Assembly (NCBI GenBank): GCA_011322135.1
Contig: DRNP01000043.1
Span: 1-57,631, forward strand
DNA: 57,631 nt
Source of the DNA: Candidatus Kaiserbacteria bacterium
GTDB taxonomy: Bacteria > Patescibacteriota > Minisyncoccia > Phycocordibacterales > Phycocordibacteraceae
Reading direction: 5' to 3'
Shown here in pieces: positions 11,439 through 57,631 of the stretch. A program made the position numbers and the translations under genes. Each line of letters starts with the position of its first letter. The first letter of the stretch is position 1. The notes beneath the pieces were generated by a model. It ran no database searches. It was not told the origin of the DNA and saw only the letters and a list, made by a program, of their open reading frames with translations.

Positions 11439-11740
11439 ACTGCAAAAATGGAAATGGAAAATGGGGTCAGGATCCATTTTATCCAATGTTGGAAAGTTGG
11501 GAGAGTCGGACTCTCCCATATTGGATTAAAGTGAATATTTAACTACTTAAAATAAGTTGGATGAGGTGTTCTCAAGACCGCGAGCAACATGTCTAGGGAC
11601 AAGTGTAGATAATTAAATTATTTTAGTTATCTACACTTGTAATGTGACAAAACAAAAACCGGATTTTTACACCGCGACAAAAAATATCCGGTGAGTGGGG
11701 TTTAACCTCACTCACTTTCTTTAACTCTAATTCAAAAAGC

Positions 11741-48257: not shown

Positions 48258-48298
48258 TACGATGTAATATCTTTCACACATTACTGCAAAAATAAAGC
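48258..48298. repeat. Island direct repeat, left copy
   Basis: See 57231-57273. One substitution plus a 2-nt indel between the copies. It starts 5 nt upstream of the truB start codon. Confidence 0.85.
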
Positions 48299-48300
48299 TC

Positions 48301-48323
48301 GGAAATCGTGACTGTCCCTATTT
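48301..48323 (+). repeat. 23-nt inverted repeat, left arm (contains the TCGTGACTGTCCC core)
   Basis: ggaaatcgtgactgtccctattt, a perfect reverse complement of 48988-49010. Confidence 0.9.
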
Positions 48324-48345
48324 ATTCAATATTCTTAGTTTTAAG

Positions 48346-48588
48346 TTATAGGTTTTTATATGTTTTTTCGTTGCGCAAACGTATTGAATCTATAATGAGT
48401 ACTTTCCCTTTTTCATAATGAAAAATAATTCTGAAATTTCCTTTTCTGAGTTTAAAGAAATCTGTATCTTTTACTTTCGTAATATTTAAACCTATTTTGT
48501 GTCCGTTTGTAAGCTGACTAATTATTTTAGATAAAAATAAACGGTCTTTAGCCGATATTTTTCTAAATAATTTCTCTTTTTTATCCAT
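48346..48588 (-). CDS. Type II toxin, RelE/ParE family
   Basis: 80 aa. FFKLRKGNFRIIFHYEKGKVLIIDSIRLRNEKTY pattern. Confidence 0.7.
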   Translation of the reverse strand: MDKKEKLFRKISAKDRLFLSKIISQLTNGHKIGLNITKVKDTDFFKLRKGNFRIIFHYEKGKVLIIDSIRLRNEKTYKNL

Positions 48589-48599
48589 ATACTATTTCT

Positions 48600-48851
48600 C
48601 TATCCGTCTATTTTCTTAAGAATTTTTTGTAGTTCGCTAGCCCTTAATCCTTTTCTACTGTTATCACGAATAGCGTCAAATACCGTATATTCATCTATAT
48701 CTTTTTTTGTATAAGAAACAGGGTTAATGATAATAGAATCACCTTTTGAATCAATGGAAATGTATTTAGTTTTCATCGCTCTACGCCACTCTATTGGAAG
48801 TGTTATTTGCCCTCTCTCTGTGACTTTTTGTATTTTTTGTATTGATTTCAT
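48600..48851 (-). CDS. AbrB/MazE/SpoVT-type antitoxin
   Basis: VTERGQITLPIEWRRAMKTKYISIDSKGDSIIINP swapped-hairpin motif. Upstream of the toxin. Confidence 0.7.
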   Translation of the reverse strand: MKSIQKIQKVTERGQITLPIEWRRAMKTKYISIDSKGDSIIINPVSYTKKDIDEYTVFDAIRDNSRKGLRASELQKILKKIDG

Positions 48852-48987
48852 CGTATTCTTATTATAAGAATTTCATATTTTCTGTCAACAAGTGTATTTA
48901 ATCACCTCGGGGTCGAATGAGATCAACGCCTGTTTATTACAGAAATTATCTTTTAAACTTCGCTGACTAAAGTGTCTACTTTTTGGA

Positions 48988-49010
48988 AAATAGGGACAGT
49001 CACGATTTCC
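48988..49010 (-). repeat. 23-nt inverted repeat, right arm
   Basis: aaatagggacagtcacgatttcc. Confidence 0.9.
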
Positions 49011-49092
49011 GTGGTCTGCCAACTCCCCGACGAGTAGTCTCGAACCCGTGACGATCGACCATTATGTCCACCTGGCGCGCTCTCCCATATAT

Positions 49093-49116
49093 AAAATCGT
49101 GACTTCCCACCATTTA
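49093..49116 (+). repeat. Degenerate copy of the motif plus island right-junction sequence
   Basis: aaaatcgtgacttcccaccattta resembles 57202-57233 (aaaatcgtagctgtcccacccttaccattta). Confidence 0.5.
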
Positions 49117-49136
49117 CTCGAATGCTTGGCGCACCT

Positions 49137-49583
49137 CTAAGCCGTATTCTTGGATGCCCGTGTGTTCGCACGATGCGCTTTGAAATATTTCCAAGCGATG
49201 AGTAGAAATGAGATGACGGTGACAATCTCAGCCATCTGGCGTGCGGCATCGTCACGGGTGTAGGGAAAGAGATCCATACCAAGCCCCTGAGATGAAGTGG
49301 TATTTGTCAGAGCAACAGAGATGAAGGCGAGCGGGAGTAGCCACACCGCGAGCTTGAGCCAGGATTTGAAGACTGCGCGCGAGACGAAGATAAGGACAAT
49401 GGCAAGCGGGAGGGAGTAGAGGGCGAAGAAGTATGAGGGTTGAGTGAAGTAGAAGTATATATGATCCATCCAGGAGCCATAGCAAGACGAGATTGTTTCT
49501 GTACACCAACGACTGAAGTAAAGAAATCCTATAGCTAATAGCGTGCCCAGCACTGGTATAAATTGGACGATTTTTGTTTTCAT
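49137..49583 (-). CDS. Four-TM membrane protein (hypothetical)
   Basis: CYGSW...FKSWLKLAVWLLPLAFISVALT. Distant paralog of 49669..50088. Confidence 0.55.
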   Translation of the reverse strand: MKTKIVQFIPVLGTLLAIGFLYFSRWCTETISSCYGSWMDHIYFYFTQPSYFFALYSLPLAIVLIFVSRAVFKSWLKLAVWLLPLAFISVALTNTTSSQGLGMDLFPYTRDDAARQMAEIVTVISFLLIAWKYFKAHRANTRASKNTA

Positions 49584-49668
49584 ATCAATCTGAATAATTA
49601 ATAATTAAATTCCCCTTCTTTGTTTTTATATATGGTATCACCAAACCAGGGAGTATTTGTCGTTTGCG

Positions 49669-50096: not shown

Positions 50097-50405
50097 TATT
50101 TTAATTACTAATATTCCTTCCAATGTTTTCACACTCGGCACATACAAACCATTATACGTCTTTAAGTGCTCGCGATGGAAGCGTGGTTTTGTGAACAAGT
50201 TTATTCTGTGTTTGTATGCAGATGAAACGACATACGTTTTATTGAGGCGTGGAAAATATGTAGCGATAATATTGTTGGTCGGCGTTTTGATATCCGAGAC
50301 AAGGGTTGTGTAGTTGCCTTGTCTATTTGTATTCCAAAAGTAATGGAGCGTAGCGGTGGCGTTTGTTGTAGTGCCATTTGAATAACTGAGAGAACGTATT
50401 ATATT
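50097..50405 (-). pseudogene. Orphan 3'-terminal fragment of the giant lipase-like gene
   Basis: 50125-50396 aligns ungapped with 51135-51406 (offset 1010; about 14 mismatches in 272 nt by eye). The frame stays open (IRSLSYSNGTTTNATATLHYFWNT...VKTLEGILVIKI*) but there is no start codon. Confidence 0.65.
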
Positions 50406-50487
50406 TTGATTTAGATAAAATCAATAGAATCACATATTACTTAGCCAGCAACACTCTGTTATAAGCACATCCAAGAACTTGACTTAA

Positions 50488-51081
50488 TTAAAGCAGTCCA
50501 AAACTTGGTATAGTAACAAAGAAAATTGGCAAAAGTATTATCCCTGCACTACTTATCGCAAGAACAAGCATGGTAAATACAGTAGCCCAGCTCATTGAAT
50601 GTGCATATCGTATTTTTTTATAAGTTGCCACTACGAATTCAACAAGAAAGAAAAGGGACTGAGTAATCGCGAGAATTAAAAATGCAATAAGAATCCAGAG
50701 AAACGCTGCGCTCGATACAACATACAAAAACCCTTGCGGTATGATTTCGGGTGACATACCCCATAGAACGAACAGAGCTATAAATATTGCAAGAAAAACA
50801 CTAACAACAGCGCCTGCACGCGAGAAAACTTTGGAACCAAGTTTTGATGGCAATATAAAGTGTCGATAGAGCATCAATACAACATATCCGTTAACTAGAT
50901 AGGTCACCACAGCAAGAAAGGCGCTCCATACCAAAGATCCCCCTTCAGCCTGCGCTTGCGACTGCACATATTGATTAAAACTTAAAACAAAAATTGTCAG
51001 CAATATGCCACCAATAATTGATAGTAAAAGCAGTAGTCGTGAAAACTTCGTTGGTTTTTTGATTAAGTAAGAGACTGACAT
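50488..51081 (-). CDS. Multipass membrane protein (hypothetical)
   Basis: About 6 TM segments. Starts 22 nt after the giant gene stop. Confidence 0.6.
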   Translation of the reverse strand: MSVSYLIKKPTKFSRLLLLLSIIGGILLTIFVLSFNQYVQSQAQAEGGSLVWSAFLAVVTYLVNGYVVLMLYRHFILPSKLGSKVFSRAGAVVSVFLAIFIALFVLWGMSPEIIPQGFLYVVSSAAFLWILIAFLILAITQSLFFLVEFVVATYKKIRYAHSMSWATVFTMLVLAISSAGIILLPIFFVTIPSFGLL

Positions 51082-51103
51082 AATATGAGTTTAATTACTT
51101 GAA

Positions 51104-54100
51104 CTAATAATCTATCTGCACAAATCCCTTCTCCGTTTTCACACTCGGAACATACAATCCATTATACGTCTTTAAGTGCTCGCGACGGAAGTGTGGTTTT
51201 GTGAACAAGTTTATTCTGTGTTTGTGTGCAGATGAGATAACATACGTTTTATTAAGGCGTGGAAAATATGTAGCGACAATGTTTTTGGTCGGCGTTTTGA
51301 TATCCGAGACAAGGGTTGTGTAGTTACCTTGTCTGTTTGTATTCCAAAAGTAATGGAGCGTAGCGGTGGCGTTTGTTGTAGTGCCATTTGAATAACTGAG
51401 AGAACGCATTGTAAGTATTGCGAAACCCGGACCAAATGAATGGCGAACAAGTTTGCTGTGGTAATTTCTGTGATGACGTTTGCGGTCACGTCTATAATCG
51501 CGATCATGATTATTATCGTGGGGTATCTTTTTCGCGAATAAATTTGGAATATGTAAGTTGTTGAAACTCCTCTCTATAGATCGTCCGTCCTTATGCCACG
51601 AGTCATCTAATTTTAAAAATGGAAATATTTTATGATATTTGTGATGGCGACTAAAACTTGGATATTTAGCTGTGGCAATAGTGAGCCAATTGCCAGCCTG
51701 GTCGGTAATCGTGGTGGAGGTTGCGGTAGAAGTGACTGTTGTTGATGATGTCTCATCTATGCCTGTAATTTGTATGCTTTTGGTAGAAGTACTGAAACCA
51801 ATTATAGCTTCTGGCGGAATGATGTCAGGAATTACAATACTTCCCTGCTTTGCATTATATTGAGTGTACGTTACACCGTCGCCACTGTAATTAACTTTTA
51901 GAGTACTACTTGCGGTCGGGTCGGTCGCCGGGTTGATTGCCAGCGTAGCAATAGTTGATGTCGCTGAAGGAATAGCGGCGAAAGTGGTAGACGCAACGAC
52001 AGTGTTTCCATTTTGTTCTTTAATATCTAGTGCAAAGGAACCGCTACCGATACCACGCATCACCACCTTTCCTGTCATACTTTGAGGCACCGAGAGCCAT
52101 TGCACTTCACCGAAACGACGATAATCAACTCCTGGAATATTGAACTCTGTTGATGTTGCGGTAGCACCGGTATAATTACCGGAAGTATTTATGAAACCGA
52201 GTGTGAGTGGAGAATGAAGAATAAAATGAAGCCGTGCCATGTTACCTGTGTAAGCGGGAGTTGAAGTACTAATGTATTTTGGAAGTGATGCAGTGGTTGA
52301 TGCTGTGATAATGGATGATAGAAGTGTACGAAGTTCAGAGACGTTAAATATATTGTCATGATGAGTACCAAAAAGTGCATCTGCTTTTTTCGAGTATCTA
52401 AGCCACCCATTGTATTTATTTAGATTCACCCAATACCTAGTATCCTTTCCACCATCAGCCCATAGTGCGCTTGGTGTTACAACTGTTCCATCTCCATCCA
52501 TGACCATCCTTGGTATGTATGATATGTGCGTTGATAAATTACAGCCATTGGATAACCATACTTTTGACTCTTCTGCGAAAGCCAGACATTTAAAAAATGG
52601 CAACTTCTCGTAATGAATCCCAGCTACAGTCTCATTTCCCCATCCAGCTATCGTGTAAAGATGTACACTGGTGGGTGGCGTCCATTTATCCAATGAAGCA
52701 TGGGTTGCTTTTGCGGCATGTAGAAGATTTACATTTGCTATCTGTGGATCAATTAGATCGTCATATGCGGGCACGTTACGCGTGCCTGCAGAATCGGTCA
52801 TAAAATTATACAAACCCTGAGCCCAGTTGATATTGCTTCCATAAGCATTGCTCCATGTTGGCAAAGTTGATGAAGAAATTGTAACGACAGGAGTAGAAAC
52901 GAGTTGGTTGTCGCTGTTTTTGAAATTATCAGCGTAAGAAAAATATGATTGCGATGGTAGAAGGTCATAAGTCATCGGCATGTTTTGTGCCAAGTCACGA
53001 GCTTTCTTGTTAGAAAGAAGAGTCGGTATACCAGCACCATATCCGTTAAGAAGAACCCCTATTGCGTCTGGTGTTCCGAGTTGTGGCGTGGCAATGAGTA
53101 TGACGTTATCAATGAGCCGTGCCGTGGTTGTCGCTCCAAGTTTTTGCATAAGTGCTTTGGCAAGTAATCCTCCGTTGCTGTGAGCAATGATTGTAACTTT
53201 TCCGGTTGGTGAAGTTGAGGCGAGATGTTTTAAGGTCTCAATAATGTATGGGTCATGCCCGGGCTTTGGTGCCTCAATATAACTAATGTGCCCATCTGCG
53301 AGTTTCCTTCCCTTGGTAATAAGGGTGTTGTATCCAAGTCGCCAGTCATAGGGAGTTGACGTCGCAATAATGTGGTACTTGGACTGCCAGTTTTTCATTT
53401 CTTGCAATAAATCTTTGTATACCGTATGATGAATCGCTTTATACACCATATGTACAGTCACTTGGGAAATAACTTTTGAAACTGCAATATTCTGGTCAAT
53501 GCTCGTTCCATCTGAGTTTAGTTTTAGTGAATTAGCTACAGTATCACTTGCAGGAGTCCACACTTTTTGATGAATCGCTTCGTCGTATAATGTGCTTCCC
53601 TCAATGCCGGGGAGGAAGAGGACGTTGGAGACTTTGGGGACTTTTGGCAAGCTCGTATCTTTGACGACAATAGTTCCTGCAGTGCTACAGTAATAATCAC
53701 CAACCCACGTATTGCAATAACCATTTGCAACTATGGTGCCTGTAAATGTAGAAGTCGCACCTTCTGCGTATAGCGCGATGCGACCGCCACCGCCAGCTCC
53801 AGAGACAATAGCACTACCTCCCCCGCCACCGTTTGCGTTAAACACGCCATTTCCAACGAGTGTCTTGGTGTGCACGAGTATGCTTCCACCGCTCCCGGAG
53901 GTATCGCCTTCGACGGAAATCGTACCGTTGTTAGTGAGCGTATCTGCGATATTGAGTGCGATTGCGCCACCACCGGCTCTGTAGCCACCGCTCCCAAAGT
54001 CGGTCGGGTTGTCAGCACTGCCATACGTCGAGGTTGCGCTGTTTCTGTACCCGATGCCACCATAGCTTGCTCCTGCGTATTGGTCACCATGTGCTGTGCC

Positions 54101-55318: not shown

Positions 55319-55339
55319 TGCGTCGACTTCGTCGACGCA
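55319..55339. repeat. Hairpin tgcgtcgac-ttc-gtcgacgca (short version of 57115-57157)
   Basis: Same gtcgac-ttc-gtcgac core as the 20-bp stem upstream of the 254-aa paralog. Confidence 0.7.
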
Positions 55340-55356
55340 CGTGTTTAGACTAAGAT

Positions 55357-55399
55357 ACCTCCTTCATCTTTTTCGCCACCTGCAAGATATTAAAATCGT
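55357..55399. repeat. 43-nt block identical to 57167-57209 (shared 5' region of the giant gene and of the paralog pair)
   Basis: acctccttcatctttttcgccacctgcaagatattaaaatcgt. Confidence 0.9.
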
Positions 55400-55434
55400 G
55401 ACTGTCCCCATTTCTTCGTGACTGTCCCCATTTC
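55393..55434 (+). repeat. Two tandem 21-nt units carrying the CGTGACTGTCCCCATTT core
   Basis: aaatcgtgactgtccccattt + cttcgtgactgtccccatttc. Confidence 0.85.
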
Positions 55435-56225: not shown

Positions 56226-56346
56226 GTTGTCATAGTATCACAGACAACGTCTGCCTCTGGGAGACGTGCCAGCTCCTCAATTGAGGTATTCCTTACTTTT
56301 TTGTTCTTTAGTTCTTTTGAACCTCGCGCAATGCGGGGTTCTTTTA

Positions 56347-57114: not shown

Positions 57115-57157
57115 TGGAGAACGCGCGCGTCGACTTCGTCGACGCGCGCGTTCTCCA
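57115..57157. repeat. Perfect 20-bp GC-rich stem with 3-nt loop
   Basis: tggagaacgcgcgcgtcgac-ttc-gtcgacgcgcgcgttctcca, 25 nt upstream of the paralog B start. Confidence 0.8.
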
Positions 57158-57202
57158 GGCTGATACACCTCCTTCATCTTTTTCGCCACCTGCAAGATAT
57201 TA

Positions 57203-57219
57203 AAATCGTAGCTGTCCCA
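57203..57219 (+). repeat. Degenerate motif copy at the island right end
   Basis: aaatcgtagctgtccca. Confidence 0.5.
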
Positions 57220-57230
57220 CCCTTACCATT

Positions 57231-57273
57231 TACGCGATGTAATATTTTTCACACATTACTGCAAAAATAAAGC
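57231..57273. repeat. Island direct repeat, right copy
   Basis: tacgcgatgtaatatttttcacacattactgcaaaaataaagc. Confidence 0.85.
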
Positions 57274-57313: not shown

Positions 57314-57631
57314 ATGCAACACACACCGCGATTTGTATGGGACGCACAAGAATACGAATTCGACGATAAGCCTGCCGAATGGTATTGGGGTTTGGGTGTT
57401 ATCGCAACGGCTAGTATTATTGCCAGTGTTCTTTTCGGAAATTATCTCCTTGCAATTGTTTTTTTAACAGCAACATTTGCTATCGGACTACAAGCCACGA
57501 AAAAACCTAATACTCATCACATTGTTCTCTCCGAACAAGGACTGGCAATCGAACACCGTTTATACCCTTTTGATATAATGCACTCCTTCAGCATGTTCGA
57601 GCACATTGATAAATCAAAACCTCCCATATTA
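57314..57631 (+). CDS. Hypothetical two-TM protein (3'-partial, runs off the window)
   Basis: Not in the supplied track (no stop in the window). ATG at 57314; hand translation MQHTPRFVWDAQEYEFDDKPAEWYWGLGVIATASIIASVLFGNYLLAIVFLTATFAIGLQ... is open to the end. Confidence 0.5.
   Translation, partial: MQHTPRFVWDAQEYEFDDKPAEWYWGLGVIATASIIASVLFGNYLLAIVFLTATFAIGLQATKKPNTHHIVLSEQGLAIEHRLYPFDIMHSFSMFEHIDKSKPPIL

Follow-up and report, generated by a model that had tools for sequence, protein, structure and literature searches.

Orphaned end-repeats, probably of a TIRYT/RAYT-type Y1 transposase, around and beyond a toxin–antitoxin pair in a Candidatus Kaiserbacteria genome

The tyrosine transposase genes known as TIRYT are flanked, at similar distances on both sides, by terminal inverted repeats (TIRs) carrying the motif GGGGWSAS, and gene and repeats together make up units called TIRtrons (Di Nocera, De Gregorio & Rocco 2013, PMC3733652). 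Some of these TIRs are self-complementary, some form moderately abundant families found as dimers or clusters, and many E. coli strains are reported to have lost the gene and kept the repeats (PMC3733652). Subclass 2.1 of the TnpA-Y1 proteins probably corresponds to TIRYT, and it holds 291 of the 292 sequences of RAYT group 1 (Quentin et al. 2018, PMC6006769). Here we examine a short repeat in a stretch of 57,631 nucleotides from a Candidatus Kaiserbacteria bacterium (assembly GCA_011322135.1, contig DRNP01000043.1, our C43; hereafter the window), where two inverted copies bracket a toxin–antitoxin (TA) gene pair. A prior reading made from the letters of the window (the sequence-only reading) had left it as either a recombination or transposition end or an operator, and had likened the bracketed pair to a non-autonomous cassette. 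Our comparisons indicate that the motif is very probably the TIR of a TIRYT/RAYT-type Y1 (HUH) tyrosine transposase, that is, of a TIRtron, so that the first of these options was right in kind, and that this transposition end is probably now orphaned.

The source assembly is fragmented (656,807 bases in 46 contigs, 42% GC) and is rated 95% complete. In the window, ggaaatcgtgactgtccctattt occupies 48301-48323 and its exact reverse complement lies at 48988-49010. The perfect 23-nt inverted repeat reported earlier is indeed present, and BLAST extends the exact identity of the two arms to 24 nt (48300-48323 against 49011-48988). The 13-mer core, TCGTGACTGTCCC, is found four times exactly and twice with two mismatches in the window, compared with 0.75 ± 0.95 copies in shuffled windows, and 0 of 100 shuffles reached six. 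The left arm (48301-48323, plus strand) is a solo, intergenic copy. A degenerate copy at 49093-49116 (plus strand) proves to have lost 1 nt from its core (TCGTGACT-TCCCA) and overlaps the stop codon of a membrane-protein gene at 49137-49583. Two tandem copies at 55393-55434 (plus strand) exist as described, with a period of 20 nt (55396 to 55416) rather than 21; read on the minus strand, they stand upstream of a shared leader and a giant LCAT-like gene. The copy at 57203-57219 (plus strand), likewise degenerate with its two mismatches, sits in a duplicated 92-nt leader block upstream of a related gene, paralogue B.

Across the genome, the 13-mer has 19 exact copies on 7 of the 46 contigs and 21 when up to one mismatch is allowed; the same 13-mer read backwards has none. 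Comparison of 19 copies defines a conserved unit of about 24 nt, which we term type A (consensus GRAAATCGTGACTGTCCCCATTTAT). The copies fall into about 12 loci, some standing alone, some paired in inverted orientation and some arrayed in direct tandem at periods of 18-42 nt, with clusters located near the ends of contigs C1 and C15 (genomes, contigs and loci carry our own G, C and L numbers, and contigs named without a genome belong to this assembly). All 21 copies are intergenic, though about 87% of the genome lies in open reading frames (ORFs) of at least 90 amino acids (aa). Tandem arrays often terminate in a run of incomplete copies of the unit's outer half, GTCCCCATTTAT. Such outer halves (e.g. 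TTGTCCCCATTTAT) are also reiterated in short tandem runs beside full copies at C1 230-300, C15 130-235 and C18 13904-14020, and in another species downstream of the transposase (L018, in G056); slippage, or repeated abortive cleavage and rejoining, could produce these runs.

Only two of 40 relatives contain the 13-mer, G011 with three copies and G025 with one; it is missing from the other 38, including 23 of the 24 genomes drawn from the genus. In G011, which belongs to the same genus, the 13-mer occurs solely at the flanks of a 223-aa ORF on contig C53, bracketed by two tandem copies and one inverted copy. The predicted protein matches Pfam Y1_Tnp (PF01797, IS200-like; E 1.4e-14) and no further Pfam domain, and its best NCBIfam match is REP_Tyr_transpos (NF047646; E 3.4e-18, 65.9 bits). 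Public records name this 223-aa protein only as 'transposase' or 'hypothetical protein'. Six full-length orthologues are 51-64% identical, and the HUH (PNHWHL) and tyrosine (YVERN) motifs are invariant among them. A PDB search with the transposase as a single sequence gave no match; a profile of the six orthologues has E. coli TnpA-REP (4ER8) as its best PDB match (E 1e-5), followed by ISDra2 TnpA.

The association of gene and repeat extends over the whole family. All five complete congeneric orthologue loci have flanking inverted repeats, as do 28 of 33 loci of the 223-aa family outside the congeners, drawn from Patescibacteria, Nitrospirota, Planctomycetota, NC10, Burkholderiales and others. 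The sequence of the flanking repeats varies between species while their architecture is constant: an A-run and GG(G/T)G(T/A)CAG precede an arm of partial complementarity and a T-run. At the loci inspected for it, a GGGG(T/A)C(A/G)G-type core precedes the start codon, in most cases by 25-49 nt. At L049, a Paceibacteria locus, AATGGGGACAG(C/T)CACGATT, almost the type-A sequence itself, is inverted around an intact 223-aa transposase gene. We read the motif as a transposase TIR because the 13-mer flanks the intact Y1 gene of G011 and because flanking repeats accompany the family as a whole.

The family itself is single-copy in each genome. Many genomes of the genus additionally contain other, divergent Y1_Tnp genes, as many as about 10 per genome (30-40% identical, 215-260 aa), and 9 of the 15 that we checked (loci L022-L034) have palindromic inverted-repeat flanks of their own, such as CAAGGTTCGACCTTG and GTTAGGACACCCAGTGTCCTAAC; the Kaiserbacteria genome has none of these further genes.

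The sequence-only reading had called for a cognate transposase to be sought elsewhere in the genome, and what this assembly yields is two short remnants. No match to the Y1_Tnp domain (PF01797) was found anywhere in it at E<=1, and a six-frame search with the G011 protein returned two matches, both to its last 30 residues (194-223). One, on the minus strand of the window, is what remains of a TIRYT/RAYT-type Y1 transposase gene, a 3′ stub of 30 codons (49003-49092; IYGRARQVDIMVDRHGFETTRRGVGRPRKS, ending in a stop codon; 63% identity, E 1.4e-6), which aligns with the conserved C terminus W-V-D-x-M-V-x-R-H-G-L-x-x-T-L-R-x-x-G-R-P-K-K. The other is at C15 236-328, with 58% identity to residues 194-223. 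The window stub lies between the degenerate 5′ repeat at 49093-49116 and an intact 3′ repeat at 48988-49010 (minus strand), and this 3′ repeat is also the right arm of the inverted pair enclosing the TA genes. The stop codon of the stub falls inside the 3′ repeat (GGAAATCGTGA, read as R-K-S-stop), just as in the intact G011 gene, and the two repeats have the same outward geometry as around the intact gene. The segment 49011-49092 (85 nt) was also considered as a small RNA or tRNA-like gene; ARAGORN and Rfam returned nothing, whether gathering thresholds or E<=5 were applied, its fold is no better than that of shuffles (z -1.83), and the segment is a coding remnant.

The stub together with both repeats forms a 124-nt unit, which recurs with 94% identity at C15 222-345, where no TA pair is present. 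A paralogous site (C15 1915-2000) aligns collinearly with the window, starting at the end of the membrane-protein gene and running on through the two repeats, except that exactly the 86-nt stub region is absent, leaving a head-to-head repeat dimer (C15 1950-1984). Judged from these sequences, the sites form a decay series that runs from the intact TIRtron of G011, through a stub with both ends, to a bare dimer.

In 56 distinct 5′ repeats, a fixed hairpin register of seven base pairs is 80% paired, compared with 73.8 ± 1.2% after shuffling; 0 of 500 shuffles exceeded this value, and sliding the register by one column lowers pairing to 58-71%. Compensatory AU/UA/GC changes occur at pairs 6-20 and 9-17, and G7, G8, G10 and C12 are invariant in the alignment. 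Since the 56 repeats are related sequences, these shuffle controls are lenient, and we regard the apparently conserved hairpin register as supportive. A second family in the genome, type B (AAATGGGGTCAGGACCCATTT), belongs to the same superfamily as type A and is more palindromic; its consensus folds as single-stranded DNA at -7.9 kcal/mol, close to the -7.3 kcal/mol of the repeat in G100. Type B has 16 matches at up to one mismatch, of which 12 are intergenic. One lies in the window at 11458-11480 (plus strand, AAAATGGGGTCAGGATCCATTTT) and others are on contigs C3, C4, C23, C24, C26, C27, C28 and C45; no cognate transposase for type B was found in this genome. Single copies of the repeat types of other relatives occur as well, for example AAATGGGGTCAGCCACCATTT at C19 11162.

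Several observations weigh against this assignment. The G011 protein scores below the NCBIfam RAYT equivalog cut-off of 80 bits (NF047646). Type A is a poor palindrome, self-complementary at 16 of 23 positions, and its predicted single-stranded hairpin (-1.3 kcal/mol) is no better than those of shuffled sequences. Most relatives with an intact gene have the repeat at its two flanks only (G009, G056, G060, G218, G220 and G221), and for this reason repeat spreading is not a general property of the family; dispersed copies are known from G217 (seven), from G100 (17 sites of its own repeat) and from the present genome, which has at least 19 and no intact gene. As no intact transposase gene was found in this assembly, past mobility is something that we infer; the gene may have gone unassembled, given a fragmented assembly in which repeat clusters lie near contig ends. 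Several copies arose by segmental duplication together with neighbouring genes and not by transposition: those at 55396 and 57206 lie in one duplicated 92-nt block with the shared leader, and their recurrence is therefore a single event. Finally, low-GC TA DNA is located between two of the repeats, and the drop in GC between the arms could hint at insertion targeted to the repeat.

Taken with these reservations, a mechanism can be proposed by analogy with E. coli TnpA-REP and with IS608 and ISDra2. On such a scheme the enzyme would act on single-stranded DNA, recognising, cutting and rejoining the repeat, a chemistry that could spread copies to intergenic sites. Since the assembly yields no intact enzyme, those in this genome are probably fossils, which may now serve mainly as short homologies where duplications and deletions begin and end. 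On this account the bracketing of the TA pair would be incidental, with a right arm that is the stub's 3′ end-repeat and a left arm that is an unrelated solo copy; the TA module, low in GC and equipped with a promoter and operator of its own, would have arrived separately in a repeat-rich spacer.

Both TA genes are encoded on the minus strand. The antitoxin (48600-48851, 83 aa) is of the AbrB/MazE type, as had been proposed, with a match to PF04014 MazE_antitoxin above the cut-off (28.7 bits against 24.7) and to the TIGR01439 AbrB family (E 1.4e-5). The toxin candidate (48346-48588, 80 aa) is RelE/ParE-like by a weak match to Pfam ParE_toxin, below the cut-off of 23 bits (E 0.015, 16.3 bits), and its homologues are paired with the same antitoxin family in other genomes. 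The operon has a promoter on the minus strand at 48888-48861 (TTGACA-16-TATAAT) that matches the consensus at 12 of 12 positions, and a palindrome of 8+1+8 nt at 48855-48871, read from the sequence, covers the -10 box and is likely the antitoxin operator. The closest relative found, metagenome contig L129, encodes a toxin that is 85% identical and retains the same promoter. Its homology is restricted to 48346-48891 and ends 22 and 96 nt before the arms. The repeat was said to enclose only the two TA genes; it encloses both, together with their promoter and these 22 and 96 nt of unrelated spacer.

Orphan end-repeats of this kind might also act as joints for the capture, duplication and deletion of accessory modules, by which we mean the TA pair, the paralogous genes for membrane proteins and for secreted proteins, and the blocks of leader plus gene, with insertion of the TA module between two copies guided by the repeat. 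We consider this extension unlikely. The plainer role as short homologies draws on three intragenomic homology blocks that end at the edges of repeat copies: the stub-unit block shared by the window and C15 (48986-49108), the leader block 55320-55408, whose match to 57127-57218 stops exactly at the repeat core, and the block 49098-49659, whose start falls within the degenerate 5′ repeat. Repeat clusters also adjoin two pairs of paralogous accessory genes. The earlier statement that the core recurs at every module junction goes too far, as no copy is present at about 50100-50480, at 51081-51104 or at 56226-56346.

That the TA pair together with both repeats makes up a non-autonomous cassette, mobilised in trans by the Y1 transposase with the TA genes replacing the transposase gene as cargo, we hold to be very unlikely. 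The idea draws on a perfect inverted repeat of 23/24 nt, on the 27-32% GC of the segment between the arms, which drops sharply from the 42% of the genome, and on a rarer variant, GGAAA...CCCTATTT, that both arms carry. The perfection of the arms is not special, however: 19 of the 171 pairs of family members share an identity of at least 24 bases, so that a 24-nt match is ordinary in this family. The right arm belongs to the stub unit that recurs at C15 without a TA pair, and the geometry of the arms is opposite to that of the transposase flanks. Around the TA pair they face inward (TCGTGAC...GTCACGA), around the transposase they are reversed (GTCACGA...TCGTGAC), and the TA pair therefore lies outside, not inside, a TIRtron-type unit. 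No target duplication is found outside the arms (flanks ...aaagctc| and |gtggtct...), no second copy of the cassette exists in this genome, and no close DNA match occurs in 200 congeneric genomes. Nor is the repeat kept around homologous TA pairs: at three congeneric and 11 metagenomic homologue loci, neither a GGGGWCAG core nor a comparable flanking inverted repeat was found, and the homology with L129 stops short of both arms. The cassette envisaged by the sequence-only reading is thus not supported, and the TA module is independent of the repeats.

Two further observations concern the same module. An empty site could not be read at the truB locus of congeneric species, where the DNA is too divergent and only the tRNA gene and pieces of truB match. 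At L036 (G073:C1, 1000-1700), a homologous TA pair lies at the 3′ end of an exonuclease III-like gene and a direct repeat of about 22 nt (GGGCAGTGGTCGGAGCCGTAGA), a duplication of the gene end, flanks the pair; this suggests that this TA family is mobile by another route, independent of the end-repeats.

The second option of the earlier reading, in which the motif is an operator or promoter element through which a shared regulator controls truB, the TA pair, the giant gene and paralogue B, is in our view highly improbable. All direct copies in the window do lie upstream of minus-strand units, as had been noted; the motif has partial dyad symmetry, its tandem copies are spaced about two helical turns apart, and copies between co-directional genes mostly have one orientation relative to transcription. 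The pattern does not hold genome-wide, however, for the copies on C18 lie between convergent genes; those on C4 lie between genes in tandem orientation. The 13-mer is present in only 2 of the 40 relatives and so is not kept upstream of orthologues, and in relatives the motif stands on both sides of the transposase gene. The TA operon has a promoter of its own, no promoter-like site overlaps any copy, in agreement with the earlier failure to fit the motif to sigma70 spacing, and many orthologue loci have a TTGACA after the repeat instead of within it.

In the pdif modules of Acinetobacter plasmids, TA and resistance genes lie between inverted Xer sites, 28-bp sequences of XerC-spacer-XerD structure whose exchange depends on XerC/D. 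We find it extremely improbable that the repeats are recombinase sites of this type that exchange modules such as the TA pair. The TA pair does lie between inverted sites, some module borders carry copies and homology blocks stop at copies, but the only consistent protein partner, over many phyla, is the Y1/HUH transposase; no tyrosine or serine recombinase is linked in any locus examined, and tandem arrays and partial copies are untypical of dif-like sites. An assembly artefact that joined a foreign, low-GC fragment at a short repeat is barely conceivable: the assembly is of metagenome type in 46 contigs, with repeat clusters near the ends of C1 and C15 and a sharp GC drop between the arms, but final assembly k-mers usually exceed 24 nt, the length of the repeat, a foreign fragment would need the same repeat, inverted, at both of its ends, and TA homologues of the same family are present in congeneric genomes.

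The neighbourhood of the repeats holds further duplications. Paralogous secreted proteins are encoded at C4 13080-13622 and C18 14103-14693 (both start MPRKIIAQIAILASVFFLS), and each gene adjoins a type-A cluster and a common terminator-like hairpin, which suggests that the genes were co-duplicated with the repeats. At 55320-55392 and 57127-57202 the repeat is followed by a leader of about 75 nt that is duplicated, once ahead of the giant LCAT-like gene and once ahead of paralogue B; this leader carries AAGGAGGT and then a long GC-rich palindrome, which spans 43 nt and is near-perfect at 57115-57157 and is shorter at 55320-55345. A 279-nt piece from the 3′ end of the giant gene has a second copy about 1 kb further downstream, past a 197-aa gene (50125-50403 against 51135-51413, 94% identity). 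A 39-nt direct repeat (48260-48298 against 57235-57273, 97%), with a type-A copy 2 nt and 15 nt away, looks like a duplicated truB promoter region. The window contig and C19 probably abut, because the last 54 nt of the window (57578-57631) are identical to C19 1-54.

With the motif read as a transposase end, the picture of a mobile TA cassette or of a shared operator gives way to one that has been tested: a 657-kb genome of the Candidate Phyla Radiation (CPR) that would carry about 20 orphan end-repeats of a little-studied, TIRYT-type transposase. The kind of element is already known (TIRYT/TIRtron, RAYT-related), and the local particulars are its orphan state, the decay series and the CPR host. 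TIRYT/RAYT biology has so far concerned mostly Proteobacteria, to which a CPR example is added here; a full-text literature search combining RAYT or REPIN with Patescibacteria or Candidate Phyla Radiation returned no paper treating these elements in CPR. The GGGGWSAS end-repeat accompanies the 223-aa transposase subfamily across very distant phyla. If the end-repeats did act as joints, a dead Y1 transposon would be shaping the accessory islands of a streamlined, ultra-small CPR genome. For annotation, short inverted repeats found around a gene pair in genomes like this one should be compared with the repeat families of the genome before a cassette is called.

Comparison with described systems places the element close to TIRtrons and at varying distances from the others. 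The likeness to Acinetobacter pdif modules is superficial: a TA pair between inverted short sites that recur at module borders is common to both, but the sites here belong to a Y1 transposase and not to XerC/D, and TA homologues elsewhere are without such sites. With the IS200/IS605 elements IS608 and ISDra2, the 223-aa protein shares the catalytic fold and motifs and, presumably, a chemistry on single-stranded hairpin ends. Its ends differ in being inverted copies of one sequence instead of distinct left and right ends, and there is no TnpB and no multi-copy unit here. The best relative of solved structure is TnpA-REP (RAYT, PDB 4ER8) of the E. coli REP/BIME system, whose units are REPtrons, and both systems have extragenic repeats (21 of 21 here) and a gene bracketed by inverted copies. 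The 19 copies, in contrast, have no conserved GT[AG]G (or CGTC) tag and no GC-rich stem, the foot of the stem being A/T-rich; copies number in the tens rather than the hundreds, and the protein falls under the NCBIfam RAYT cut-off. The REPIN-RAYT system of Pseudomonas (Bertels & Rainey 2011, PMC3116915) likewise has inverted doublets, comparable to C15 1950-1984, and a single-copy transposase family, whereas copies here are mostly singles or direct tandem arrays and the one clear doublet resulted from deletion of the gene between its own ends. From the TIRtrons the present case differs in its ultra-small CPR host, in a 223-aa protein with no Pfam domain beyond Y1_Tnp, and in a transposase reduced to 30-codon stubs while about 20 repeats persist. 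It agrees with them in a Y1/HUH gene that has inverted repeats with GGGGWSAS (here GGGGACAG) close by on both sides, at a fairly constant distance, and in repeats that are partly self-complementary and occur as a moderately abundant family, whether single, as dimers or in clusters.

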